This document shows, one piece after another, positions 6,399 to 42,090 of a stretch of DNA of 42,177 nt. Under the pieces are notes generated by a model. That model was not told where the DNA came from. It saw nothing but the letters and a program-made list of their open reading frames with translations, and ran no database searches. Positions within the stretch are counted from its first letter, which is position 1; every line of letters begins with the position of its first letter. The stretch spans positions 1-42,177 of the forward strand of contig CAZQCB010000001.1 in assembly GCA_964592265.1 (NCBI GenBank). Reading direction: 5' to 3'. The position numbers and the translations under genes were made by a program. Source of the stretch: an uncultured Candidatus Peribacteria bacterium. Lineage in GTDB: Bacteria > Patescibacteriota > Gracilibacteria > Peribacterales > Peribacteraceae.

Positions 6399-7053
6399 GA
6401 CAATCGTCATCGTCGGCGGGAATGCCGGCGCACGCATTGCGTGTGACATCTTCCGTGCGAGCAAGGCATCACAGGCATTCCGTCTTCTCGACTCCTTCGC
6501 GCCGGATGCGTCCTGGAGCGGCAAGCCGCCGAAGGCGATGCCCGGAAAGAAAGAGGATGCAGAAAACATCCAGTTCCTTGCGGAGAAGGACGTCGCCTAC
6601 TTCGTCGCGACGGGCGATAATGCAATGCGGAAGGAGATCACGGAGTTTCTCATCGGGAAGACGGGGAAGGAGCCCACAAACTGCATTCACCCCTCCGCCG
6701 TCATCGCGCCGACTGCGGAGCTCGGATATGGAAATCTCGTCTGCCCGCTCGCGGTGATTCACACGCAGGCCAGGATTGGCAATGGCACAATCGTGAATTC
6801 CGGCGCAGTCATCGAGCACGACTGCGTCGTCGGGGAGTACGCGCAAATTTCGCCCAATGTTTCCCTCGCGGGGCGGGTGATCGTCGGGGAGCTCGCCTTT
6901 GTTTCGACCGGCGCAATCGTCATCCCGGAGATCACGATCGGGAGAGAGTCCGTTGTTGCTGCCGGAGCGGTGGTCCTCGACTCTGTCGCGCCGCGGACGA
7001 TGGTCGCGGGGTGTCCCGCCGTTTTCAAGAAAACCCTCCCATCCCATGGCTGA
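6391..7053 (+). CDS. NeuD/PglD-type sugar N/O-acyltransferase (hexapeptide repeat)
   Basis: 220 aa. An N-terminal Rossmann-like IVIVGGNAGA is followed by a left-handed beta-helix repeat run (IGNGTIVNSGAVIEHDCVVGEYAQISPNVSLAGRVIVGE). 8-nt overlaps occur on both sides. Confidence 0.85.
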   Translation: MPKTIVIVGGNAGARIACDIFRASKASQAFRLLDSFAPDASWSGKPPKAMPGKKEDAENIQFLAEKDVAYFVATGDNAMRKEITEFLIGKTGKEPTNCIHPSAVIAPTAELGYGNLVCPLAVIHTQARIGNGTIVNSGAVIEHDCVVGEYAQISPNVSLAGRVIVGELAFVSTGAIVIPEITIGRESVVAAGAVVLDSVAPRTMVAGCPAVFKKTLPSHG

Positions 7054-8173
7054 TATCCCCATCTTCCGGCTGGAGTTCGAGGAGACATTCGTGAAGAAAT
7101 TTGAACGGGGAGTCCGGGACATTCTGCACTCGGACGCCATGTCGGAAGGGCGGTACGTGAGGAAATTCGAAGAGAAGTTCAAAGCGTTCGTCCATGCGGA
7201 CTACGCCGTTGCCGTCTCCTCCGGCACCGCAGCGCTGGAAATCGCACTCCGCGCACTCGACGTGCGCAAGAAAACCGTCCTCATGCCGACGAATACGTTC
7301 TTCGCAACTTCCATTGCCGCCGTGAACGCGGGGGCTGATTTCCGCTTGCTCGATATTGAGGGGGAGAGTCTCAGCATCGACCCCGGGGCGCTCGAGAGCG
7401 CTCTCCAAAAATCCCGGAAGGGCGAGATTGGCGCAGTGATCATCGTGCACGTCGGCGGCATCATCTCGGCGCACATGCCGGAGATCATCAGGATCTGCAA
7501 ACGCTACGGTGCGCCCCTGATCGAAGACGCCGCGCATGCCCATGGATCCATGCGGCACGGTCTCTCCGCCGGAACCATTGGAGCACTCGGCTGCTTCAGC
7601 TTCTTCCCGACGAAGGTCATGACGACGGGCGAAGGAGGGATGGTGACGACGAATGATCCTGCCCTCTTCGAAGAGAGTGTCTCCCTGAAGGACTTTGGAA
7701 GACCTGCGCGAAATGCCTACACGTTTGTCCGGGAACAGGGTGCAAACGCGAAGGTCCCCGAGATGATCGGTCTCTTCGGGGTGCTCGAATGTGAACGTGT
7801 GCGGAGGCGGATTGCGCGGAGGAATACGCTCGTGAGGCGCTATGCGAAGAATCTCAAGTCTTCCGGGTATGTCCCTGTGCTCCAGAGCGATGGTGCGTGT
7901 TCGTACTACAAGTGCATCCTCAGGCTCCCGCGCGGGATAGACCCAGGAAAGCTCAAACGTTTCTGCAAGGAGCGGGGAGTAAGCCTCACCGGCGAAGTCT
8001 ATAGCGTCCCGCTCCATGAACAGCCGCTCTACCAGAAAAAATTTGCGGACTTCTCCTTCCCGCATGCTGATTTGTTCTGCGCCCATCACATCTGTCCTCC
8101 GCTCTATCCGGAACTGTCCAATGATGAAGTCGATACTGTGTGTCAGGTACTCTTACAGGCAGAGCAGCTATGA
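7046..8173 (+). CDS. DegT/DnrJ/EryC1-family sugar aminotransferase
   Basis: 375 aa from ATG7046. SSGTAALEIAL and DAAHA are present, and the Schiff-base Lys lies in FSFFPTKVMTTGEGG. Confidence 0.85.
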   Translation: MADIPIFRLEFEETFVKKFERGVRDILHSDAMSEGRYVRKFEEKFKAFVHADYAVAVSSGTAALEIALRALDVRKKTVLMPTNTFFATSIAAVNAGADFRLLDIEGESLSIDPGALESALQKSRKGEIGAVIIVHVGGIISAHMPEIIRICKRYGAPLIEDAAHAHGSMRHGLSAGTIGALGCFSFFPTKVMTTGEGGMVTTNDPALFEESVSLKDFGRPARNAYTFVREQGANAKVPEMIGLFGVLECERVRRRIARRNTLVRRYAKNLKSSGYVPVLQSDGACSYYKCILRLPRGIDPGKLKRFCKERGVSLTGEVYSVPLHEQPLYQKKFADFSFPHADLFCAHHICPPLYPELSNDEVDTVCQVLLQAEQL

Positions 8174-9192
8174 AAAATCGCGTTGCACAATTAGTGGACA
8201 TCGGCAGAGTGGAACTCCGGGAAGAGGAAACGTCTCCACTTCAGAACGGGGAAGTTTTGGTTGCGATCCGCGCCGCGGGACTCTGCGGCTCCGATAGGCA
8301 TTACTTCCTGCATGGCGGGCTTGGCTCCTTCAAACAAAAACTGCCGATGCCGATGGGACACGAGGCCGCTGGGGAAGTCGTCGAGAGCAGGAGCACCAAG
8401 TTTCAGCCTGGCGATCGCGTCGCGGTGGAACCGGCAAGACATTGCGATGCCTGCGCAGACTGCCTGCGGGGAAAATATAATCTCTGTACGCGCGGCACGT
8501 TCATGGGGGCGAACGCGCAGGGCGCTTTCAGCGACTACGTCGCAGTGCATGAGAAGCAGCTCATGAAAATTCCCGATGCGATGTCCTATGAGATGGGAGC
8601 CCTCCTCGAACCTCTCGGGGTCGTGCTGCACGCCCTCAACCTCCACCCAGTCACCCCGGATGACACGGCGACGATCTTCGGATGCGGCCCCATCGGTCTC
8701 TCCATGCTCTACATTCTGCAAAAGAAAGGCGTAGAGCGGATCTTCATGGTTGATCGACTGCCGTACCGTAGAGCATTTGCGAAGGAGTTCGGAGCGAGTG
8801 CCACTTTTCTTCTGGGAGATCCGTGGCAGGGAGAGATCCGGGAGAAAACCTCGGGTCGGGGAACATCCCTGAACATCGACGCTGCGGGCGAAGAAGCTTC
8901 CATCAACGGTTGTATGCAGACGGCGATGAGCGCCGGGCATATTATGCTGATCGGGATTCCCGAGACCGATTTCGTCCCTTTGAATCCCCACAAAATGCGC
9001 ATGAAGGAGCTGACCCTCCAGAACGTGCGCCGCTCCAATCAAACGCTTGAGGAGTGTATTCGGCTCACGACGGGGGACGATACGCTCGCGCGCATGATCA
9101 CCCACAAACTGCCTTTAGAATCGCTTCAGAAAGGGTTGGAGCTCACAGGGGACTACCAGGACGGGGTCATAAAATGCATGATTCTTGGGTAG
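8170..9192 (+). CDS. zinc-dependent MDR alcohol/polyol dehydrogenase
   Basis: 340 aa from ATG8170 (ATGA overlap). GLCGSDRHYF, GHEAAGEV, a structural-Zn Cys cluster CDACADCLRGKYNLC and a Rossmann GCGPIGL are present. Confidence 0.85.
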   Translation: MKNRVAQLVDIGRVELREEETSPLQNGEVLVAIRAAGLCGSDRHYFLHGGLGSFKQKLPMPMGHEAAGEVVESRSTKFQPGDRVAVEPARHCDACADCLRGKYNLCTRGTFMGANAQGAFSDYVAVHEKQLMKIPDAMSYEMGALLEPLGVVLHALNLHPVTPDDTATIFGCGPIGLSMLYILQKKGVERIFMVDRLPYRRAFAKEFGASATFLLGDPWQGEIREKTSGRGTSLNIDAAGEEASINGCMQTAMSAGHIMLIGIPETDFVPLNPHKMRMKELTLQNVRRSNQTLEECIRLTTGDDTLARMITHKLPLESLQKGLELTGDYQDGVIKCMILG

Positions 9193-9214: not shown

Positions 9215-10240
9215 ATGAAGAGCAGTGCTTCGAAGAAAGTGCTCGTGACGGGAGCCGGCGGATTCATCGGGAGTCACCTCGCACGCAGGCTGCATGAGGA
9301 GGGACATCATGTGCGCGCGGTCGACATGAAGTGGGACGGGTACATGGAGGAACCGTACTTCTCAGAGAAGATGACTCTGGACCTTCGCGTGCAGGAGAAT
9401 TGTCATAGAGCCGTAGAGGGAATGGACTGGGTCTACAGCCTTGCTGCCGACATGGGAGGCATCCTCTTCATCACCAATGTCGCCGCGGACCTGGTACACA
9501 ATAATTCCCTGATCGACATCTGCATGCTGAGAGCTGCTGCAGAGCATAAAGTGGAGAGGTATTTCTTCTCGTCATCGGCTTGCGTCTATCCAGAACATCT
9601 GCAACTCAACGCAGAGATCGGGGGATTGAAAGAGAGCGACGCATACCCGGCCAATCCGGACAGCTTCTATGGATGGGAGAAGCTCTATTGCGAGAAAGTT
9701 TGTGAGGCGTACGAGCGCGATTTTGGCCTCCAAATCCGCATCGGTCGTTTCCACAATATCTATGGGCCCCGCGGAACATATGACGGTGGACGGGAGAAGT
9801 CTCCCGCGGCGCTCTGCCGCAAAGTGATCCAAGCTTCCAACCCGGGATCGATCGAGATCTGGGGCGACGGGAATCAATCGCGCTCGTACTGCTATGTGGA
9901 TGACTGCGTCGATGGGATTTTGACCTTAACCGCGTCGGAGTACAGGAAGCCCGTGAATATCGGATCGGATCGCCTGGTCTCCATCAACGATCTTGCAGAT
10001 ATCGTCATCGGCATTTCGGGCAAACGTATTGCCAAGACGTACAATAAGACTGCTCCGCAAGGCGTACGGGGGCGGAACGCAGATCTCACGCTTGTGAAAG
10101 ATGTTCTCGGATGGGCTCCAAAGGTTTCTCTCGAGGAGGGACTTGCGAAAACGTATGCTTGGATTCAGGAAAGACTCTCTCTGAAGCAGAATCAGCCCGA
10201 GGTTCCCTTAGGTGCAGCACTCCGCACTGCCGTGCGATAG
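9215..10240 (+). CDS. GDP-mannose 3,5-epimerase-like extended SDR
   Basis: 341 aa. VTGAGGFIGSH and YGWEK (YxxxK) are present. The protein is near-collinear with GME strings: LAADMGG, SSACVYPE, RIGRFHNIYGP, GGREKSPAALCRK, WGDGNQSRS, NIGSD and GVRGRNAD. Confidence 0.8.
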   Translation: MKSSASKKVLVTGAGGFIGSHLARRLHEEGHHVRAVDMKWDGYMEEPYFSEKMTLDLRVQENCHRAVEGMDWVYSLAADMGGILFITNVAADLVHNNSLIDICMLRAAAEHKVERYFFSSSACVYPEHLQLNAEIGGLKESDAYPANPDSFYGWEKLYCEKVCEAYERDFGLQIRIGRFHNIYGPRGTYDGGREKSPAALCRKVIQASNPGSIEIWGDGNQSRSYCYVDDCVDGILTLTASEYRKPVNIGSDRLVSINDLADIVIGISGKRIAKTYNKTAPQGVRGRNADLTLVKDVLGWAPKVSLEEGLAKTYAWIQERLSLKQNQPEVPLGAALRTAVR

Positions 10241-15194: not shown

Positions 15195-15218
15195 TACCAA
15201 TTCACTAGTGAATTGGTA
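15195..15218. repeat. 24-nt perfect palindrome TACCAATTCACTAGTGAATTGGTA, copy 1
   Basis: Read directly from the sequence. An identical 26-mer (with G and T flanks) recurs at 39866-39891. This copy spans the gap between convergent genes and supplies the last codons and the TAG stop of wecB. Confidence 0.95.
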
Positions 15219-16341
15219 TTTTCGAAAGCTCCTTCACAATCTCCTCCCCCGCATGGCCACCCCCAAACCCTAGAGTAGTTTCGAGGGACCACGCCTTGGG
15301 AACATTGCTCACGGGAACTCTTGCATAAGTTATTATGGATTTTTTATCTTTCTCGTCATTTAAATTCACAAGCTGATTACCATACTTTAAGGTTATCGGC
15401 CTTTCTGTATTCCTGCGGAGTGTGAAACACTTTATCCCAAGAAAAGCTGTCTCCTCTTGAATGCCTCCCGAATCAGTAATAACAAACTTCGACCGAATCA
15501 TCAGTTTGATAAATGGTAGATATCCCAACGGATCTATACGCCTAATGTATTCCAAAAATTTTGATTGCAATCCAAATCTTTGAATGGCAGCTTGTGTGCG
15601 AAAGTGAACGGGGAATATCAGAGAGCACTCTTTACAAGCAACAGAATTCATAAAATCTATACAGCGTTCTAGATTTTCCTTGTTATCTACGTTACTCGGA
15701 CGATGTAAAGTAACAAGTCCAAAATGCCGTGGCTCCAATTTCTCAAGAGGGGAAGGCAACTTCTGTTTCATAAATACTTCAAAATTTGTTCCACGAGTAG
15801 TCATTCGCATGAGCGTATCAATCATCGTGTTTCCGACGTGGTGCACACCCTTCGTTATTCCTTCATTCTGAAGATTATCCATTCCAGATTGCTCCGTGAC
15901 AAAAAGAAATGCTGAAAGGTGATCGATTGCCTTGCGATTACCCTCCTCGGGCATTGCATCATCGAATGAGCGAAGTCCCGCCTCGACGTGTGCAATGGGA
16001 ATTTTCAGTTCGTGCGCCGCGAGTGCTCCCCCCAATGCCCCGCTCACATCACCGTAGACGAGGACAAGCTCCGGTTGGAGTTTCTTGAGGATAGGGAGTG
16101 CTGCTTCCTTCGTGCGTGCAACGGTATCATCGTTACTCGCTCCTCCCTTCACCCCCAAATTCTCATGGGGTTCTGGAATATTGAGCTCTTTGAAAAAAAT
16201 CTCGGAGAGCAGTGGATCATAGTGTTGGCCTGTATGAATGATGATGTGCTCCCACTTCGGCGCATGCTCTTTGAGAGCATGGTGGAGTGCTGCAAGCTTG
16301 ATAAAGTTAGGTCTGGCCGAAACGATACTCACAATTCTCAT
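15205..16341 (-). CDS. wecB: UDP-N-acetylglucosamine 2-epimerase (non-hydrolysing)
   Basis: 378 aa. MRIVSIVSARPNFIKLA, HTGQHYD and ITDSGGIQEE are present. Confidence 0.9.
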   Translation of the reverse strand: MRIVSIVSARPNFIKLAALHHALKEHAPKWEHIIIHTGQHYDPLLSEIFFKELNIPEPHENLGVKGGASNDDTVARTKEAALPILKKLQPELVLVYGDVSGALGGALAAHELKIPIAHVEAGLRSFDDAMPEEGNRKAIDHLSAFLFVTEQSGMDNLQNEGITKGVHHVGNTMIDTLMRMTTRGTNFEVFMKQKLPSPLEKLEPRHFGLVTLHRPSNVDNKENLERCIDFMNSVACKECSLIFPVHFRTQAAIQRFGLQSKFLEYIRRIDPLGYLPFIKLMIRSKFVITDSGGIQEETAFLGIKCFTLRRNTERPITLKYGNQLVNLNDEKDKKSIITYARVPVSNVPKAWSLETTLGFGGGHAGEEIVKELSKIPIH

Positions 16342-16401: not shown

Positions 16402-17613
16402 TTAAGGAAGGAGTTTCCGCTCACGGAAAAACTCCCGGAAGACCTGCACAATGTACCCCAGCTGCTCCTTCGAAAACCCCGGATGACACCCAATGTAGAA
16501 TCCACACCGGTTGATCCAGTCCGCGACAGGATATTCCTGGAGGGGAATATGCATCGGCGCATAGACCGGCTGATTGATGAGTGGGAGCAAATCACGTGTC
16601 TCGACATTCCATGCCTCCAGGTGCTCGACGAGTTCATTCCTCGCGAAAGGCGACCCTTCCCGGACCACAATGGGAAACATCATGAAGGCATGATCCTGCA
16701 CAGTGGGATCGTACCAAGGAAGTTGTAACCACTGCGCGAGCGGATGCAGGTCGGCGCCGAGCGTCTGCGCATGTTCCCTCCGCACACGAAGGATCTCCTC
16801 CAGGCGCTCCAACTGGGCAAGGCCGAGTGCCGCCTCCATCTCGGTCGCACGGAAGCTGTAGCCACGCCGAATGAAACGAAAGCGACGCCGAATGATTTCC
16901 CGAAAACGCGCACCATCAATATCCTGATCATCATCCATGCAGAGATAGATACTATCGCGGCCATGGTTCGCGAGGCTACGGAGGATCTCCGCATAGTGCG
17001 GATCGCTGGTAAGAGCAAAACCCCCGACCCCCGTCACGATAATGTGCGCTGCATATGTGGAGAAGCAGCTGATCGCCCCGAGCGACCCCGCCGTACGGCC
17101 ACGGTACTGCGCACCCACCGTCTCGCAGCTATCCTCGATCACAGTGAGATCGTGCTTTGTAGCGACCGCAAGGATCAGATCCATGTCTGCCATGAGCCCG
17201 CACAAGTGCACCACCATGACTCCGCGCGTGCGCGGCGTGATCTTCGCCTCCATCTGCGCAGGATCGATGGTATAGGTGCGGGGATGACAATCCACGAAGA
17301 CCGGTGTGAGGCCGTGCTCCAGGAGCACGTTCACCGTCGCAACGAAGGTGACTGCAGGAACAAGTATCTCGTCCCCCTCCCGCCATTTGCCCACTTCTTT
17401 GAGACAGGCAACCGCTATGGAGAGCGCGCTTGTGCCGCTGTTCACGAACACCCCAAATCCACAATCATGCCTGCGGGCAAATTCCTGCTCGAACTTGCGG
17501 CTGAACGGTCCGTAGGAAAGCCGCTTGCTCTGCAGTACCTGCTGCACGTAGTCGAACTCCCTCGCTGTGAGATCCACGCTGCCAACGCCCAACTGTGCAG
17601 GAGAACGTTCCAT
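16402..17613 (-). CDS. DegT-fold enzyme with His in place of the Schiff-base Lys (ColD/E1-type sugar 3-dehydratase candidate)
   Basis: 403 aa from ATG17613. NSGTSALSIAV and EDSCE are present. The Lys position reads His (FSTYAAHIIVTGVGG; codon 17044-17046). Confidence 0.8.
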   Translation of the reverse strand: MERSPAQLGVGSVDLTAREFDYVQQVLQSKRLSYGPFSRKFEQEFARRHDCGFGVFVNSGTSALSIAVACLKEVGKWREGDEILVPAVTFVATVNVLLEHGLTPVFVDCHPRTYTIDPAQMEAKITPRTRGVMVVHLCGLMADMDLILAVATKHDLTVIEDSCETVGAQYRGRTAGSLGAISCFSTYAAHIIVTGVGGFALTSDPHYAEILRSLANHGRDSIYLCMDDDQDIDGARFREIIRRRFRFIRRGYSFRATEMEAALGLAQLERLEEILRVRREHAQTLGADLHPLAQWLQLPWYDPTVQDHAFMMFPIVVREGSPFARNELVEHLEAWNVETRDLLPLINQPVYAPMHIPLQEYPVADWINRCGFYIGCHPGFSKEQLGYIVQVFREFFRERKLLP

Positions 17614-17632: not shown

Positions 17633-18364
17633 TCACCGCCACCGAATGAGGAGTATGGAGAAGAATGCTTCGTAAATCTCTCGGGCCCGGAGATTGGAGG
17701 CGCCTCTCCTGCGATTGACGAAGATCGTGGGGACTTCCCTGATCCGCATCCCCTTTCGATGCAGCTGATAGGCAATTTCCGAGAGGACTATGTATCCCTG
17801 CGCTTTGATGGCATCGAGGTCGAGCACCTGGAGCGCCTTGCGGGTGTAACAGCGAAACCCATTTGTGTAATCCGTGATCGGTATACGGAGGAGAGTGCGC
17901 GCGTACCCGTTGGCCAAGCGGCTGAAAAGGGCACGCTTCCGGCTCCAACCCTCGATCCTGCTCCCCGGAAGGTAGCGCGATCCCACAACGACATCACACG
18001 ATCGAATACATTCCAGAACATCACGCATTTCTTCCGGTCGGTGAGAGAAATCCGCATCCATCTCGAACACCAGATCATAGTCGCGCTGGAGAGCCCATCG
18101 GCACCCTTCCACGACAGCAGAACCACGCCCTCCCTTGCCCCCTCGTACGACCACGTGCAAGTGATCGCCATAGCGCGGCTGCAAGTGGCGGACGATCCCT
18201 GCTGTCCCGTCAGGGGAACTGTCATCGACGATAAGAATATCAAATGCCGGGTAGAGAGCGAAGATGCGCTCGATGAGCTGACCGATGTTCGCAGCTTCGT
18301 TATATGTGGGGATGATGACGAGGGTATGCACGTGGGACAGAGGGATGGGAAGTGCTAGGATCAT
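17633..18364 (-). CDS. GT2 polyprenyl-phosphate glycosyltransferase (Dpm1/Ppm1-like)
   Basis: 243 aa. VIIPTYNEAANI, ILIVDDSSPDGT and FEMDADFSH are present. The protein has no TM segment. Confidence 0.85.
   Translation of the reverse strand: MILALPIPLSHVHTLVIIPTYNEAANIGQLIERIFALYPAFDILIVDDSSPDGTAGIVRHLQPRYGDHLHVVVRGGKGGRGSAVVEGCRWALQRDYDLVFEMDADFSHRPEEMRDVLECIRSCDVVVGSRYLPGSRIEGWSRKRALFSRLANGYARTLLRIPITDYTNGFRCYTRKALQVLDLDAIKAQGYIVLSEIAYQLHRKGMRIREVPTIFVNRRRGASNLRAREIYEAFFSILLIRWR
18356..18361 (+). promoter_or_regulatory. -10-like box TAGGAT, 8 nt upstream of ATG18370
   Basis: The sequence reads TAGGAT-cataactc-ATG. The box lies inside the first codons of the divergent GT2 gene. Confidence 0.35.
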
Positions 18365-23841: not shown

Positions 23842-24830
23842 CTTTGAGTGCCGCATCGTACAGAGGAGCAGACATCTTAGTGACTGGAGGACTTGGCTTT
23901 ATCGGTTCCACTCTCTCGATCGCACTCGTCGAAGCTGGAGCCAAAGTCACGATTGTCGATTCCCTGATCTCAGGTCACGGCGGCAATTTCTTCAATATCG
24001 AACCCATTAAAAACAAGGTCCATGTGAATGTCTCGGACATGCGCGATAGCCATACGCTTCGGTCGCATGTTATGGGGAAGGACTTCATTTTCAACCTGGC
24101 TGCCCAGGTGAGCCACATCGATAGCATGGAGGATCCGATGACCGACCTCGAAATTAATTGTCGGTCACAACTCTCGCTCTTAGAAACGCTGAGAGCCCAT
24201 AATCCGAAGGCCTGCATCATCTACACTGGGACGCGTCAGGTGTATGGAAAGCCCGTGTACTTGCCCGTTGATGAAAAGCACCCGATCAACCCAGTGGATG
24301 TGAATGGCATCAATACCATGGCGGGAGAGTGGTATCACCTGCTCTACGCGAAAGTGTATGGGATGAGAGCAACGGCCCTTCGACTCACGAATACATATGG
24401 ACCGCGGCAGAAGATCAGCAACGTGAAGCATGGCTTCGTCGGCACATTTATCCGGAAAGCGCTCCAGGGGGAAACGATTCAGCTCTTCGGTGATGGGTCG
24501 CAACTGCGGGATTTTAATTTTGTTGATGATGTGGTGGATGCTCTTCTCACCGCGGGAGAGAAGCCGGAACTCTCCGGGGAATTCTTCAACCTCGGGGATT
24601 CGGCGCATTACTCCTTGAAACAATTTGCCGAGATGCTTCAGAAACTTTGTACCTTCAAGATCGAGACTGTCCCCTTCCCGGAAGACCGAAAGAAGATCGA
24701 TATCGGGGATTATTACGCGTCGTACGAGAAGTTTCAGCGCGCAACAGGATGGACGCCAAAAGTAGATCTCGAAACAGGCCTCAAGCGCACCGTGGAGTAT
24801 TTCCGCGCATATCTTCCTCAATACCTTTAA
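23838..24830 (+). CDS. extended SDR (NAD-dependent epimerase/dehydratase fold), atypical active site
   Basis: 330 aa from ATG23838 (ATGA overlap). VTGGLGFIGS is present. The position normally holding YxxxK reads NGINT (24303-24317). Confidence 0.8.
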   Translation: MTLSAASYRGADILVTGGLGFIGSTLSIALVEAGAKVTIVDSLISGHGGNFFNIEPIKNKVHVNVSDMRDSHTLRSHVMGKDFIFNLAAQVSHIDSMEDPMTDLEINCRSQLSLLETLRAHNPKACIIYTGTRQVYGKPVYLPVDEKHPINPVDVNGINTMAGEWYHLLYAKVYGMRATALRLTNTYGPRQKISNVKHGFVGTFIRKALQGETIQLFGDGSQLRDFNFVDDVVDALLTAGEKPELSGEFFNLGDSAHYSLKQFAEMLQKLCTFKIETVPFPEDRKKIDIGDYYASYEKFQRATGWTPKVDLETGLKRTVEYFRAYLPQYL

Positions 24831-24835
24831 GCGAC

Positions 24836-25930
24836 GTGCCAGTCCCCTTCTTCACCCATACGCGGGAATTCGAGGCTCACCACACTCAGTTGCTTGCCGC
24901 AGTAGAAGAGTGTCTTCGTTCTCCCTCACTCATCTTAGGATCGCACGTCCGCACCTTCGAGGAGCGCTTCGCAGCATCGTGCGGTTGCACGCACGGCATC
25001 GGAGTTGCCTCCGGCACGGACGCCATCAGCCTCGCCCTCCGGGCTCTCCACATCGTACCGGGTGACGAAGTGATCACCGTCGCAAACACGGCGGTCCCCA
25101 CCGTTGCCGCCATTCGCATGGCGGGTGCGATCCCCCGCTTCGTGGATATCGATCCAGAAACATTCCTCATGGATGTGACGAAGATGAAAGCAGCAATCAC
25201 GGAGAAGACGCGCTGCATTCTTCCTGTACACCTTTATGGCAATGCCGTGCCCATGCACGAGATGCTCTCCCTCGCGGAGAAATATAAACTGAAGGTGATC
25301 GAAGACTGCGCCCAAGCATACGGCACGCTGTTTGAGGGAAAACCTGTGGGAAGCTTCGGGGATGTCGGCTGCTTCTCCTTCTATCCGACAAAGAATCTCG
25401 GAGCATGGGGTGACGCAGGGATGTGCGTCACGAAAAGCGAAGAGCTGGCCTCCCGCATCCGATCGCTTCGGATGTATGGCTATGCGGAAGAGCGTGTTGC
25501 GGAGAGAGAGGGCGTCAATAGTCGTCTGGATGAGCTTCAGGCTGCAATTCTCCTTGTGAAAATGCAGTACTGCGCAGCGGACTTGAAGAAAAAGCGGGCT
25601 ATCGCCGCCCGCTACGATGAAGCCTTGAAGAAGTCTTCCCTCAAAAAACCGCACACAACGAACGGAGCAGAGCACGCCTACCACCTCTATGTTGTCCTGG
25701 CGGAAGATCGCGCGCAATTTCAGAAAAAATTGAAGGAAACTGGCATCGGAACACTCATCCACTATGCTTTCCCTATTCACTTGATGCCCGCGTATAAATT
25801 CTTGGGGTATAAAAAGGGAGATTTACCGGTTACAGAGGAAGCTTGCAACCACATCCTGAGCATTCCGCTCTTTCCGTACTTAACCGAAGGTGAAGTAGCG
25901 AAGATTTGCCAAGCGCTTGCATCAAGCTGA
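24836..25930 (+). CDS. DegT/DnrJ/EryC1-family sugar aminotransferase
   Basis: 364 aa from GTG24836; no ATG follows the stop at 24830. GTDAISLAL and EDCAQA are present, and the Lys lies in FSFYPTKNLGAWGDAG. Confidence 0.85.
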   Translation: MPVPFFTHTREFEAHHTQLLAAVEECLRSPSLILGSHVRTFEERFAASCGCTHGIGVASGTDAISLALRALHIVPGDEVITVANTAVPTVAAIRMAGAIPRFVDIDPETFLMDVTKMKAAITEKTRCILPVHLYGNAVPMHEMLSLAEKYKLKVIEDCAQAYGTLFEGKPVGSFGDVGCFSFYPTKNLGAWGDAGMCVTKSEELASRIRSLRMYGYAEERVAEREGVNSRLDELQAAILLVKMQYCAADLKKKRAIAARYDEALKKSSLKKPHTTNGAEHAYHLYVVLAEDRAQFQKKLKETGIGTLIHYAFPIHLMPAYKFLGYKKGDLPVTEEACNHILSIPLFPYLTEGEVAKICQALASS

Positions 25931-30404: not shown

Positions 30405-32059
30405 GGAGTAAAGGCGGGAGAGAGACTCAAGAGGAGCCATGTGTTTGAGGCTTCGAGAACAGTGAGGGGTAAGGAGTATCGGGTCATACTCCACTGGGGT
30501 TTCCCCTCCTGATTCCACAGGATGTGCGTCACTCCGTACTTTCGGAGCCAGGGGAGCGGATCACTCCGCACCCTCTCGCATGCTTCCCCGACGAGCACTC
30601 TCTCGCGCTCACGCATCTTAAGGGAATCGAGCACGGGAGTGTACTCGATGTAGAGCGAGCGATACGGATTGGGTGGGCTTCCTAAGAAGAGCTCTGAGAG
30701 ACAGAAGCGCTCCGCGAGCTCCGCATCAGAGAGGAGAAGGTGACGGGCGTGTGTCGTGTAGATAATCCCCTCATCTGTGAAGGAGGTGAGCACGCGACCG
30801 GTGTGCGCATCCGTGAGTACGACATCGCGCGTGCCATTCTCACGGAGAAGTTTGATGGGACGACGCAAGTACTGATCTTGGAAATCCTCTTCCTTGGGCA
30901 CGAAGAATCTGTACCCAGGGAGGTAATCATATGCCGCACCGGCAAGGAAGAGCACTGCTATGCCTGCAACACCCACTCGCGGCAAGAGGGGAACGCGATG
31001 GAGGAGGACATAGGCTCCCGCAACGAGGGAACCGAGGACGAGATGCGGGTAGAAATGGGAACTGAACATGAGAAGCGTCCCATGCACGATGTTCTGGTGC
31101 ATGGCGAGGAAGACTCCAAGGAGGAGGGAGAGGGTTGCAAGGTAACGCCAGTTCTGTCGCTCCTGCTTCCAGAGAGAGAGGAAGAGCCCCACTTGGAGCG
31201 CAAGGAGGATGCTCCGCATAGGGGACTCGACGGAGCGTGTGAAGAGAAACCCCGCACGGCGCGCAGTTTCCAAGTACAGCGGGTGCTGCATGAGTTCCCA
31301 AGTGTGGAGGAAGAAGGGAAGAGCAACGAAAAAAGTAACGAGGAGGACAACGAGGAACAGAGAGTGTGAAGGTGTGAAGGTGTGAAGGTCGTTCTTCAGG
31401 GGCCGCGTGATGTAGTGAAGAAGTACGGCGCTTCCCGCGACCGCCCATACGTAAGAGAAGCTCCAGAAGTAGATGTAGGGGAGCATGCCAAGGAGGAGTC
31501 CCGTGAGGAGTGCGAGAGGGAGAGACGGATGTTTCCAGAAGTGCAGGAATGCAATGAGGGCGGCAATCGCCGGAACAAAGCTCCACCCCGGATGCATGAC
31601 GCGCGAGACGACAGGGAAGAGGAGGAAGAAGTAGAGACTGGTCATGCCGAGTGCCCAAGGAGGAGAGAACTCCAATGTGCGGAAGAGGAAGTGAAAGAGG
31701 AGGAAGAGGAGAAACACAAAGAGGGGCGTAAGGATGACCGAGAGCGTGGGAGCGGGAATACCCAACCACCCAAGGAACACACCCAGGGCAATTTCGAGAC
31801 CGGCGATCTGCCCACCCTCAATCCCGGAACCGACGGGGGTGATCCCGTTGTCTGCTTCCGAAGGAAACCCCGAGAGAGCACGCTCCAGACGGCTATAGTA
31901 ATTGCCGAAGTCCTTGTCTCGAATGATGGTGAGTCCCTCGAAGGAGGGGTGGAATGTATGCAGGACGTATGGAACTGCGGCACCCAGTGCAAAAAGCAGG
32001 GCAACCCCTAGAACGGGGAAGAGGAAAGGGGTTTGGAGGCGGGGAGCAGAGGAAATCAC
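30401..32059 (-). CDS. polytopic membrane protein, paralog C (GT-C-like candidate)
   Basis: 552 aa from GTG32059. The acidic loop reads IRDKDFGNYYSRLERALSG. YFWSFSYVWAVAG, ESPMRSILLAL and AELAERFCLSELF are present. Confidence 0.7.
   Translation of the reverse strand: MISSAPRLQTPFLFPVLGVALLFALGAAVPYVLHTFHPSFEGLTIIRDKDFGNYYSRLERALSGFPSEADNGITPVGSGIEGGQIAGLEIALGVFLGWLGIPAPTLSVILTPLFVFLLFLLFHFLFRTLEFSPPWALGMTSLYFFLLFPVVSRVMHPGWSFVPAIAALIAFLHFWKHPSLPLALLTGLLLGMLPYIYFWSFSYVWAVAGSAVLLHYITRPLKNDLHTFTPSHSLFLVVLLVTFFVALPFFLHTWELMQHPLYLETARRAGFLFTRSVESPMRSILLALQVGLFLSLWKQERQNWRYLATLSLLLGVFLAMHQNIVHGTLLMFSSHFYPHLVLGSLVAGAYVLLHRVPLLPRVGVAGIAVLFLAGAAYDYLPGYRFFVPKEEDFQDQYLRRPIKLLRENGTRDVVLTDAHTGRVLTSFTDEGIIYTTHARHLLLSDAELAERFCLSELFLGSPPNPYRSLYIEYTPVLDSLKMRERERVLVGEACERVRSDPLPWLRKYGVTHILWNQEGKPQWSMTRYSLPLTVLEASNTWLLLSLSPAFTP
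31364..31387. repeat. octanucleotide tandem repeat GTGTGAAG x3
   Basis: Three perfect units read directly, plus a partial GT. They lie inside paralog C and encode DLHTFTPSH. Confidence 0.9.
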
Positions 32060-35586: not shown

Positions 35587-36690
35587 ATGCCCGTCCCTTT
35601 CCTCGATCTCCGCGCACAGTACGAGAACCTCAAGGGGGAGATTGATACGGCAATACAACGCATCATAGAGCGCTCCGCATTTGCCTCCGGGCCCGCCGTC
35701 GAGAGCTTCGAACATGCATTCGCAGCGTACTGCGGAGCGGAGCACTGCGTCGGCCTGAACTCGGGCACCGCCGCTCTCACGCTCCTCCTCAAGGCATACG
35801 GCATCGGACCGGGGGACGAAGTGATCACGGTCGCGAACACATTCTTCGCAACTGTCGAAGCGATCCTGCATGTCGGCGCCACTCCCGTGCTCGTGGACTG
35901 CGAAGAGAGCACAGCGCTCATCGATCCGCAGAAGATCGAAGCGGCGATCACGAAGAAAACGAGAGCCGTCATCCCTGTACATCTCTACGGGCAGTGTGCA
36001 GATATGGATGCAATCCATGCGATCGCAAAGAAAAAAAACCTCATTGTCATCGAAGACGCATGCCAAGCCCATGGAGCTCGTTACAGAGGGAAGAGAGCGG
36101 GGAGCCTCGGCCACAGTGCAGCCTTGAGTTTCTATCCGGCCAAGAACCTCGGCGCTTTCGGGGAAGCAGGAGCAGTGGTGACGAGCGACAGCAACATTGC
36201 AAACACCGTGCGTATGCTCCGCGACCACGGTCAGTCACAGAAGTACCACCACGCTCTCGCGGGTTGGAACGAACGTATGGACGGCATCCAAGGAGCCGTG
36301 CTCAACGTAAAACTGAAGTACCTCGACGAGTGGAATGTGAAGCGACGAGAGCATGCGAAGAAGTATCGAGAGCAATTGGAAGGATGCGGCGATGTTCGTT
36401 TCTTCGAAACAAGAGAAGATGCTGAACACATCTACCATCTCTTCGTTGTGAGAACACCGCGGCGTGATGCTCTGCAAAAACACCTCAAGAGCAAAGGTAT
36501 CGATACCGGCATCCACTACCCCATTCCCATTCACCTGCTCGAGGCCATGCGCGGTTTTGGTTGGAAACGTGGGAGTTTTCCTGTCGCCGAGAAACTCGCA
36601 CAGGAAATCCTCTCGCTCCCCATGTATCCGGAGCTTACAGAGGAGCAGATTGGGGAAGTCAGTCTGGCTATCGGGGATTTTTTCGGGTGA
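35587..36690 (+). CDS. DegT/DnrJ/EryC1-family sugar aminotransferase
   Basis: 367 aa. MPVPFLDL, NSGTAALTLLL and EDACQAHG are present, and the Lys lies in LSFYPAKNLGAFGEAG. Confidence 0.9.
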   Translation: MPVPFLDLRAQYENLKGEIDTAIQRIIERSAFASGPAVESFEHAFAAYCGAEHCVGLNSGTAALTLLLKAYGIGPGDEVITVANTFFATVEAILHVGATPVLVDCEESTALIDPQKIEAAITKKTRAVIPVHLYGQCADMDAIHAIAKKKNLIVIEDACQAHGARYRGKRAGSLGHSAALSFYPAKNLGAFGEAGAVVTSDSNIANTVRMLRDHGQSQKYHHALAGWNERMDGIQGAVLNVKLKYLDEWNVKRREHAKKYREQLEGCGDVRFFETREDAEHIYHLFVVRTPRRDALQKHLKSKGIDTGIHYPIPIHLLEAMRGFGWKRGSFPVAEKLAQEILSLPMYPELTEEQIGEVSLAIGDFFG

Positions 36691-40987: not shown

Positions 40988-42004
40988 TTACGCCCGATAC
41001 CACGCGATCGTCTTCTGTAACCCCTCCGTAAAGCTCACCTTCGGACTCCATCCGAGCTTTCGGATCGCAGAGGAATCGAGCGCGTAGCGCCAGTCGTGCC
41101 CTGGGCGGTCCTCCACAAACTTGATGAGGCTCTCCGGCTTTTTCAAGATGTTCAGAATCATTTTTGCAACAGCTATGTTCTCCTTCTCATTGTCAGCAGA
41201 AATATTGAAGAGGTGACCGGAGCCCTTTCTTTGGCTTGCATGCACACCAGGAACATCCGGATCCCAGAACGCCCACTCCGTACGGAGGATGAGTTCCAGC
41301 GCATCGCAGTGATCCGTCACATACAGCCAGTCTCTCTTATTCTTCCCCTCCGCGTAGACGGGAATCGGCTCGTCCTTCAGCGCATGGCGAGTGATTGTGG
41401 GGATAAACTTCTCGAGAGCTTGATGAGGTCCAAAGTTATTCGTGCAACGGCTGATGCATACTTTGATCTTGTACGTCCGCATTGCCGCCATGAGGAGCAT
41501 CTCCGCGGCAGCTTTGCTCGCAGCATAGGGAGAACTCGGCAAAAGAGGATCGCCGACGTTCCGCGGTCGGTCGTCATCGCCGATATCCCCGTAGACTTCG
41601 TCTGTGGAAATATGAAGGAGGCGAACCTGGGGATGTGCCCGACACACCTCGATCAAACTCTGGACCCCGAGAACATTCGTGTGAAGGAACGGAGAAACAT
41701 CTTTGATGCTGTTATCGACGTGCGACTCCGCAGCGAAGTTCACGATGGTATCGATGCCATGTTTTTTCACGAGTTCCGAAACGAGCTCCTGATCCACAAT
41801 ATCGCCTTCCACAAAGGTGATCTTCTTCAAAACGGGGCCGAGGAACGCTTTGTCCGCGGCGTATGTGAGCTTATCGAGGACAACCACGTTATCCTTCGGA
41901 AATTGTGCTTGCCCTGAACCAAACTTGTTCTGGTTCGGGGCGACGTGGCGGAGGACGAAGTGGGAGCCGATGAACCCTGCCCCTCCAGTAACCAAAAGAT
42001 TCAT
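40988..42004 (-). CDS. rfbB: dTDP-glucose 4,6-dehydratase
   Basis: 338 aa from ATG42004 (MNLLVTGGAGFIGSH). AAESHVDNSI, STDEVYG, PYAASKAAAE, NNFGPHQALEKFIP, RDWLYVTDH and DRPGHDWRYALD are present. Confidence 0.9.
   Translation of the reverse strand: MNLLVTGGAGFIGSHFVLRHVAPNQNKFGSGQAQFPKDNVVVLDKLTYAADKAFLGPVLKKITFVEGDIVDQELVSELVKKHGIDTIVNFAAESHVDNSIKDVSPFLHTNVLGVQSLIEVCRAHPQVRLLHISTDEVYGDIGDDDRPRNVGDPLLPSSPYAASKAAAEMLLMAAMRTYKIKVCISRCTNNFGPHQALEKFIPTITRHALKDEPIPVYAEGKNKRDWLYVTDHCDALELILRTEWAFWDPDVPGVHASQRKGSGHLFNISADNEKENIAVAKMILNILKKPESLIKFVEDRPGHDWRYALDSSAIRKLGWSPKVSFTEGLQKTIAWYRA
41894..41936. repeat. possible degenerate copy of the heptamer/GTGCTTG element inside rfbB
   Basis: The sequence reads CTTCGGAAATTGTGCTTGCCCTGAACC, followed by a GAACCA/TGGTTC stem. 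It encodes NKFGSGQAQFPK, which looks like an insert relative to remembered RmlB N-termini. The match is short, so confidence is low. Confidence 0.35.
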
Positions 42005-42010
42005 GGGGCT

Positions 42011-42016
42011 ATGATA
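42011..42016 (-). promoter_or_regulatory. -10-like box TATCAT, 6 nt upstream of rfbB ATG
   Basis: The minus strand reads TATCAT-agcccc-ATG. Confidence 0.35.
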
Positions 42017-42029
42017 GTCCCTGCGAAGA

Positions 42030-42090
42030 GAATTAAGAATCAAGAATTACGAATTAAGGGTCCTAATTCTGAATTCCTAATTCCTACTTC
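42030..42090. promoter_or_regulatory. 4+4 inverted heptamer array (GAATTNN x4, GGGTC, NNAATTC x4)
   Basis: The array reads GAATTAA GAATCAA GAATTAC GAATTAA gggtc CTAATTC TGAATTC CTAATTC CTACTTC. 21 of 28 arm positions are complementary. It sits between the two divergent -10 boxes. Confidence 0.8.

Follow-up and report, generated by a model that had tools for sequence, protein, structure and literature searches.

A predicted GDP-sugar 3-dehydratase with a histidine in place of the Schiff-base lysine in an uncultivated Peribacteria bacterium

The window investigated here, a stretch of 42,177 nucleotides from the genome of an uncultivated Peribacteria bacterium of the candidate phyla radiation (CPR), contains a gene encoding a DegT-fold protein (P0001, N-terminus MERSPAQ), in which a histidine occupies the position of the lysine that forms the internal aldimine in this superfamily. 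P0001 is most likely a pyridoxamine 5'-phosphate (PMP)-dependent GDP-4-keto-6-deoxyhexose 3-dehydratase and part of a subclade that we have termed GVGG. To the more specific proposal of a ColD-like nucleotide-sugar 3-dehydratase (3-deoxygenase) acting on GDP-4-keto-6-deoxy-D-mannose, we assign a probability of roughly two thirds (0.68). The chemistry of such an enzyme is already known and, as judged from its sequence, P0001 is a member of a large uncharacterised branch of the family and an orthologue of neither ColD nor E1.

The exchange of the catalytic residue was located in pairwise and multiple alignments. The motif FSTYAAHIIVTGVGG of P0001 includes His190, which in pairwise HMMER alignments is placed opposite Lys186 of the GDP-perosamine synthase Per from Caulobacter (FSFFGNKIITTGEGG) and opposite the first histidine of the E1 motif SFYPAHHITMGEGG. 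Latter is the catalytic one, since the column is marked by deposited point mutants, namely E1 H220K (3bb8, SFYPAKH), ColD H188N (3b8x, FYSNH) and ColD H188K (2r0t, FYSKH). In a MAFFT alignment of 111 sequences, a single column combines His190, His188 of ColD, His220 of E1, Lys186 of Per and the lysines of three other DegT paralogues encoded in the window. An earlier interpretation made from the letters alone (the sequence-only reading) had proposed that a histidine replaces the Schiff-base lysine of this protein while the three paralogues retain it, and it had named an alignment with ColD and E1 as a check and a lysine in this column as evidence to the contrary. Its assignment has held: the codon is CAC at the predicted place, the paralogues contain the exact motifs given for them (Table 1), and the alignment places histidine and not lysine in the Schiff-base column.

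The histidine is found in all 119 alignable close homologues (53–68% identity; from Peribacteria, Harrisonbacteria, Paceibacter and other CPR bacteria), which carry the pattern FSTY[VA]AH..VTGVGG, and in 78 of the 80 GVGG-clade rows of the set used for phylogeny, and it is thus neither a sequencing error nor a peculiarity of one protein. Two members of the clade contain neither histidine nor lysine in the catalytic column, with a cysteine in P0147 (FSTYCGCVVFTGAGG) and a glutamine in P0156 (FSTAGSQPVATGTGG). No other invariant lysine was identified among 24 diverse clade members, in which Asp161, the loop S59-G60-T61, Ser185 and Phe90 are invariant. In P0001 these residues align with their counterparts in Per, ColD and E1, indicating that the cofactor site is intact.

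The features of the gene and of the predicted fold are those of a complete member of the DegT/DnrJ/EryC1/StrS superfamily of fold type I. The reading frame is intact and full-length, with a G+C content at third codon positions (GC3) of 0.67 that is similar to its neighbours. The ATG at position 17613 is the likely start, since an alternative longer frame initiated by TTG (to 17775) runs into a gene coding for a glycosyltransferase of family 2 (GT2), whose end is at 17633, and since homologues of 400–405 residues align over 98–100% of the 403 residues of P0001. The Pfam model DegT_DnrJ_EryC1 (PF01041) matches residues 15–391 with 303 bits, and the best match in NCBIfam is RfbH (NF011936), whose 255.4 bits are below the cut-off of 423. 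In the Protein Data Bank (PDB), sequence matches were obtained to Per (199 bits), E1 (182 bits) and ColD (156 bits). An AlphaFold2 (AF2) model of P0001 with a predicted local distance difference test score (pLDDT) of 93 and a predicted template modelling score (pTM) of 0.91 superimposes in Foldseek on many structures of the family with template modelling (TM) scores of 0.8–0.87, with values of 0.85/0.94 for Per (at 33% identity), 0.87 for E1 and 0.84 for ColD. The sole stretch with a pLDDT below 50 encompasses residues 191–194, right behind the catalytic histidine, and this loop probably orders only upon the binding of cofactor or substrate.

To place P0001 within the family, we have searched 1.84 billion cluster representatives exhaustively and examined the best 150 matches. 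Among these, about 100 clusters at 50% identity bear the pattern FSTY.AH...TG[VI]GG, and E1-like (FSFYPAHHITMGEGG) and Per-like sequences, latter with a lysine, appear only below about 240 bits. A maximum likelihood tree of 111 rows (LG+C20, quick search, with supports from the Shimodaira–Hasegawa-like approximate likelihood ratio test, SH-aLRT) places the lysine-containing proteins on one side of a branch (SH-aLRT 99) and all 101 rows without lysine, including ColD and E1, in a single clade (SH-aLRT 99), with the lysine label changing once on the tree. This single clade supports a shared ancestry of P0001 with the characterised histidine-type members. Within it, a ColD subclade (6 rows, SH-aLRT 99) pairs with an E1 subclade (SH-aLRT 100), and P0001 is part of a separate subclade of 80 rows (SH-aLRT 98), which we have named GVGG for its altered turn. 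In this phylogeny, P0001 resides clearly outside both characterised subclades. A sister grouping of GVGG and ColD is not rejected in an approximately unbiased (AU) test (p = 0.295), and the branching order of the three histidine lineages is therefore only tentative. We have considered an orthology of P0001 to ColD and do not retain it, in light of its position outside the ColD subclade in the free tree and an identity of about 25%, although the AU test does not reject the grouping of GVGG with ColD. In the 80 GVGG rows, the histidine is preceded by alanine in 47, serine in 13 and cysteine in 12 cases, and the position of Phe345 of E1 is occupied by methionine in 68. The characterised 3-dehydratases listed in a review of nucleotide-sugar dehydratases from 2022 are only E1, ColD and SpnQ, whose defining difference is the replacement of lysine by histidine (PMC8987622).

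Among these three enzymes, E1 and SpnQ need a [2Fe-2S] cluster and a reductase, whereas ColD does not (PMC8987622). The loop that binds the cluster in E1 (GRDCYCAPGCDNTC) is replaced in P0001 by GRDSIYLCMDDDQDIDG, which lacks the motif of four cysteines. P0001 contains one cysteine in the loop aligned to the cluster-binding cysteines of E1, and the sole cysteine common to both proteins aligns with Cys193 of E1 and is also found in ColD. No cysteine is present in this loop in 75 of the 80 GVGG rows and in any of the six ColD rows, compared to three to five in 8 of the 12 rows of the E1 subclade. The genome (919,655 bases on 94 contigs, about 80% complete) was searched for a fused E3-type reductase combining Fer2, FAD and NAD domains and none was found; only a short open reading frame with Fer2 (contig C22) and a match to NAD_binding_1 (contig C30) turned up. 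Both features had been named in the sequence-only reading as worth looking for. Lacking the [2Fe-2S] motif and an E3 partner, P0001 would be expected to follow a reductase-independent route of the ColD type.

Our search for a cultured carrier of the clade among plasmids led at best to a protein encoded on pDMC1 of Solidesulfovibrio magneticus (37% identity), which proved to belong to the E1-like Fe-S type rather than to GVGG. This histidine-type DegT protein of strain RS-1 (positions 30419–31624 of pDMC1) contains the four-cysteine motif GRGCSCPSC...YC, and its gene is located between those of a GDP-L-fucose synthase and a short-chain dehydrogenase/reductase (SDR), near a gene annotated as 'phospholipid carrier-dependent glycosyltransferase'. 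It may constitute a GDP-linked, Fe-S-dependent 3-dehydratase.

The identity of the nucleotide carrier was approached from the gene neighbourhoods of relatives. We have assembled 80 species-level loci with clade members, many on truncated contigs, from CPR bacteria, DPANN archaea, Acidobacteriota, Elusimicrobiota, Armatimonadota, Nitrospirales and others, and scored their open reading frames against reference proteins. Genes were assigned to the GDP-mannose 4,6-dehydratase Gmd at an identity of at least 50% to Gmd proteins of the loci L001 and L003, which themselves reach 522–525 bits with TIGR01472 (cut-off 415). In this set, gmd is found within 300 bp of the gene of the histidine-type protein in 38 loci, and in four further loci both are fused in a single frame with Gmd at the N-terminus and the dehydratase candidate at the C-terminus (733–746 residues). 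Together, these two arrangements account for 42 of the 80 loci, and Gmd is present anywhere in the locus in 50. In all 11 Peribacteria/Peregrinibacteria loci (L010–L020), and also in L001 and L002, gmd is located directly downstream, usually followed by genes for an SDR of 300 residues and a GT2. An SDR is encoded within 2.5 kb in 49 of the 80 loci and is fused to the histidine-type protein in four independent clusters at 50% identity (682–721 residues). Conversely, RmlB-like genes (at least 40% identity) are found in only three loci and are adjacent in none, and a search of the incomplete genome for a CDP-glucose 4,6-dehydratase (TIGR02622) gave nothing above the cut-off. Because of the frequent linkage to Gmd, the absence of RmlB from adjacent positions and the lack of a match above cut-off to the CDP-glucose enzyme, the carrier is most likely GDP. 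The fusions link the activities of Gmd and of the histidine-type protein as Rosetta-stone pairs. The layout, in which a 4,6-dehydratase precedes and a ketoreductase follows, is that of a 3-deoxygenase rather than an aminotransferase, and the SDRs in the vicinity or in fusion argue for a keto product requiring reduction instead of an amino product. As a separate feature of the clade, a C-terminal extension of about 230 residues without Pfam match is present in the proteins P0122, P0126, P0132 and P0168 and in the loci L061, L070, L072, L083 and L089.

With respect to the sugar and its carrier, the sequence-only reading, which had left the carrier open, is supported in its main line and can be refined. 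Its suggestion that RmlA and RmlB at the end of the window could supply a dTDP-4-keto-6-deoxy substrate is disfavoured by the gene context of the 80 loci. The presence of RmlB itself is confirmed by a score above the TIGR01181 cut-off, while the putative RmlA amounts to a fragment of 22 residues. The hint at GDP-sugars, which it had drawn from a gene resembling GDP-mannose 3,5-epimerase (GME), is in turn strengthened by the match of this protein to plant GME structures. As to the product, the anticipated 3,6-dideoxy branch agrees with the context of Gmd and SDR and with the ColD type of the enzyme, whereas the 2,3,6-trideoxy alternative finds no counterpart in a [2Fe-2S] motif or an E3 reductase. 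A GDP-heptose substrate as in Campylobacter jejuni was also considered and set aside, since GmhA was not found in the genome, which is a weak argument given its incompleteness.

The exchange to histidine and its conservation, the fold, the membership in the clade, the lack of an Fe-S motif and the linkage or fusion to Gmd and SDRs in relatives are shown by the data, whereas we infer which reaction is catalysed, that GDP serves as carrier in this genome, which amino donor and final sugar are involved and what the GT2 does. In the proposed mechanism, PMP would form a Schiff base (ketimine) with GDP-4-keto-6-deoxy-D-mannose at its C4 keto group. His190 would act as acid/base in the abstraction of the C4' proton and the expulsion of the 3-hydroxyl group, and hydrolysis of the resulting enamine would yield GDP-4-keto-3,6-dideoxymannose and ammonia. 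An amino donor, for example L-glutamate, would convert the pyridoxal 5'-phosphate (PLP) left behind back to PMP, with no involvement of an iron-sulfur cluster or a reductase. A 4-ketoreductase of the SDR type, with or without epimerase activity, could then generate a GDP-3,6-dideoxyhexose, either colitose or an isomer, which the neighbouring Dpm1-like GT2 might load onto polyprenyl phosphate for use by a GT-C enzyme in extracytoplasmic glycosylation. Characterised relatives of Dpm1-like GT2 proteins use nucleotide-sugar donors. We would tentatively propose, with the odds against it, that the GVGG subclade in CPR and DPANN organisms feeds a GDP-3,6-dideoxyhexose, or another C3/C4-modified product, to such a GT2 to generate a polyprenyl-phosphate-linked donor for surface-decorating GT-C enzymes, in the present case by way of a non-operonic Gmd paralogue. 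We know of no lipid-linked donor of 3,6-dideoxy sugars that has been described.

Several observations weigh against the assignment of P0001 as a ColD-like 3-dehydratase. We found no assayed or crystallised GVGG member in the PDB or in literature searches, which likewise returned no paper on the clade, and the profile of the clade matches Per (306 bits) in the PDB ahead of E1 (275 bits) and ColD (247 bits). The best solved match of P0001, by sequence and fold, is the aminotransferase Per and not ColD. The residue preceding the histidine is an alanine as in E1, whereas ColD contains a serine, and the conserved GEGG turn is altered to GVGG. In the window, gmd is not adjacent, and the position that it holds in all 11 Peribacteria relatives is filled by wecB. 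The only Gmd-like gene of the genome, on contig C15, scores 400 bits against a cut-off of 415, encodes a protein with 46% identity to the operonic Gmd of L001 and shows no ATG, GTG or TTG in the stretch from the preceding stop codon to the GxxGxxG motif; it may use a non-canonical start. In the assembled part of the genome, an orthologue of the operonic 4-ketoreductase was not found, the best candidate being the GME homologue with 27% identity, and neither was a clear mannose-1-phosphate guanylyltransferase or ManC of the GMP_PMI type, although an NTP-transferase on contig C12 weakly resembles mannose-1-phosphate guanylyltransferases of the mycobacterial type (79 bits). The enzyme in this organism probably depends on the Gmd paralogue on C15 and another reductase; alternatively, its partners might be encoded in the fifth of the genome that is missing from the assembly.

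The similarity to Per raises the question of whether P0001 could catalyse a different PLP- or PMP-dependent reaction on the product of Gmd, such as a slow transamination to a 4-amino sugar, or an epimerisation or isomerisation. SpnQ exhibits an aminotransferase side activity when deprived of its reductase (PMC8987622). Moreover, the change from GEGG to GVGG and the prevalence of methionine at the position of E1 Phe345 imply an active site unlike those of ColD and E1. Still, we regard such a reaction as unlikely in light of the missing internal-aldimine lysine with no other invariant lysine to replace it, and of the location of P0001 inside a single histidine-type clade. An amination would usually be followed by N-acyl or N-formyl transferases, and the conserved partners of the clade are instead SDRs of the ketoreductase type, several of them fused.

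Even less probable is an E1- or SpnQ-type 3-dehydratase, which would act on dTDP- or CDP-4-keto-6-deoxyglucose, as for instance the product of RmlB, to yield a dTDP- or CDP-linked 3,6-dideoxy or 2,3,6-trideoxy sugar. Such an enzyme would fit the presence of RmlB and of the start of an RmlA-like gene in the same window, in which no gmd adjoins the gene of P0001, and the alanine before the histidine and the top rank of the RfbH model point in the same direction. This score is, however, far below its cut-off, the matches to reductase domains are small and separate, and Pfam scans of the window revealed no 2,3-dehydratase. We have rejected an E1-type mechanism for the lack of an Fe-S cysteine motif in the protein and of E3 and a CDP-glucose dehydratase in the incomplete genome, and the distribution of RmlB and Gmd in the 80 loci argues against a dTDP-linked substrate. 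We consider it least probable of all that P0001 is a stranded relic, without substrate or decaying since gmd and the reductase were lost in their replacement by wecB: although the absent operonic partners and a patch of low G+C content in wecB would be in line with such a loss, the frame is intact, with neighbour-like GC3 and all of the clade's invariant residues preserved, the GT2 has remained in its operon position, a Gmd-like gene is found on C15, and missing partners may simply be unassembled.

A ColD-like 3-dehydratase thus remains the preferred assignment, and ColD, also known as WbdK (colitose pathway; Escherichia coli O55 and Yersinia pseudotuberculosis; PDB 2gms, 3b8x, 2r0t, 3gr9), is together with the GDP-heptose C3-dehydratases of C. 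jejuni HS:5/HS:11 the closest known system. ColD has the histidine column, the absence of an Fe-S motif and the DegT fold in common with P0001, and the predicted substrate would be the same since relatives of P0001 have Gmd as conserved neighbour or as fusion partner. In the pathway of ColD the reductase ColC follows, in the relatives of P0001 an Fcl-like or SDR reductase. The proteins differ in the dyad of serine and histidine and the MEGG turn of ColD, which correspond to Ala189-His190 and GVGG in P0001. The mutation pair S187N/H188K (PDB 3gr9) reportedly turns ColD into an aminotransferase. The linkage to gmd and a reductase that characterises the ColD type is found in relatives of P0001 but not in the window itself. 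The C. jejuni enzymes share 62–67% of identical residues with ColD (PMC10440746).

E1 (RfbH/DdhC/AscC, CDP-4-keto-6-deoxy-D-glucose 3-dehydrase, PDB 3bcx) shares with P0001 the histidine column in the context Tyr-x-Ala-His and, compared with aminotransferases, extra residues inserted behind the HGRD motif. In contrast to P0001, it carries the CxC...C...C motif of a [2Fe-2S] protein and is found in a context of CDP instead of GDP as carrier. Per (PDB 3bn1/3dr4) acts on the product of Gmd as proposed for P0001, but as a true aminotransferase with a catalytic lysine it is located outside the histidine clade and lacks the insertion of about 20 residues after HGRD. SpnQ and the NDP-hexose 3-dehydratases of actinomycetes, which were compared by description only, are histidine-type PMP enzymes like P0001 (PMC8987622) but depend on Fe-S clusters and reductases, act on dTDP-2,6-dideoxy substrates and belong to clusters for secondary metabolites.

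The organization of the window is that of a cassette that appears broken up (Table 1). The genes of the GT2, P0001 and wecB follow each other on the minus strand, and that of a polytopic membrane protein is divergent from the GT2. With 60% identity between this GT2 and the one closing the operon of L001, in which the histidine-type gene is followed by gmd, SDR and GT2, this partnership appears to have been retained. In 17 related loci, a GT2 of at least 40% identity is encoded at a distance of no more than 4 kb. The last two-thirds of wecB (15300–15900) contain 38–41% G+C compared to 57–61% in the adjoining dehydratase gene, which suggests that foreign DNA has replaced gmd at this site. In locus L019, a homologue of the membrane protein with 30% identity is encoded 3 kb from the histidine-type gene. 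From the GME homologue, whose gene adjoins that of a Zn-dependent dehydrogenase, the organism would be predicted to contain GDP-L-galactose or GDP-L-gulose, and the strong match of this protein shows that GDP-mannose is among the metabolites of the organism. On contig C15, the Gmd-like gene lies between a gene for a PMT-like GT-C protein and genes for GT2-GtrA fusions.

Table 1. Location of the predicted dehydratase, of further genes in the window and of related features in other contigs and loci.
Feature	Location	Strand	Evidence and remarks
Histidine-type DegT-fold enzyme P0001, predicted 3-dehydratase, 403 aa	16402..17613	-	Translation, PF01041, tree, AF2 model
His190 codon CAC	17046..17044	-	Schiff-base lysine column
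Lysine-type DegT paralogue, FFPTK	6899..8173	+	Pfam 295 bits; Lys in Schiff-base column
Lysine-type DegT paralogue, FYPTK	24647..25930	+	Pfam 367 bits; Lys in column
Lysine-type DegT paralogue, FYPAK	35587..36690	+	Pfam 411 bits; Lys in column
GT2 glycosyltransferase, polyprenyl-phosphate (Dpm1/AglJ/ArnC-like) type	17633..18364	-	Pfam Glycos_transf_2; weak NCBIfam AglJ, PpgS, ArnC; immediately upstream of P0001
wecB, non-hydrolysing UDP-GlcNAc 2-epimerase	15205..16341	-	TIGR00236 248 bits (cut-off 210); 60 bp downstream of P0001
Polytopic membrane protein, 727 aa	18370..20553	+	No Pfam or NCBIfam match
GDP-mannose 3,5-epimerase (GME) homologue	9215..10240	+	364 bits to plant 8sg0, 2c59; NCBIfam GDP-fucose synthase 145
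RmlB, dTDP-glucose 4,6-dehydratase	40988..42043	-	TIGR01181 373.7 bits (cut-off 365.1)
NTP-transferase (RmlA-like), first 22 residues	42111..42176	+	PF00483 21.9 bits, model positions 1-22; window end cuts gene
Only Gmd-like gene of the genome	Contig C15 (L095) 7888-8880	-	400 bits TIGR01472, full-length domain
Gmd::HisDegT fusions	L029:7770-10010, L030:2761-4998, L043:8327-10567, L049:8975-11176		CPR or unclassified genomes
Other clade fusions	P0124, P0131, P0125, P0136-P0138		GT2+methyltransferase::HisDegT (808 aa), HisDegT::GT4 (799 aa), four SDR::HisDegT

The assignment affects how the family is read in genomes. In their source annotations, close homologues of P0001 are described as 'perosamine synthetase', 'dTDP-4-amino-4,6-dideoxygalactose transaminase', 'fdtB' or 'DegT family aminotransferase'. 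A family that lacks the lysine is almost certainly not one of aminotransferases, and since it carries such names, a systematic misannotation is likely. Amino-sugar predictions for hundreds of genomes of CPR bacteria, DPANN archaea, Acidobacteriota and Elusimicrobiota are therefore probably wrong, and 3,6-dideoxy sugars would be under-predicted. For enzymology, where work has so far been confined to the branches of ColD and E1/SpnQ, the GVGG subclade would add a third branch, whose GVGG turn, Ala-His pair and methionine at the position of E1 Phe345 offer a natural test of the residues that decide between dehydration and transamination. For the biology of the organism, our results lead to the concrete and testable prediction that uncultivated ultra-small bacteria carry an unusual sugar on their surface.

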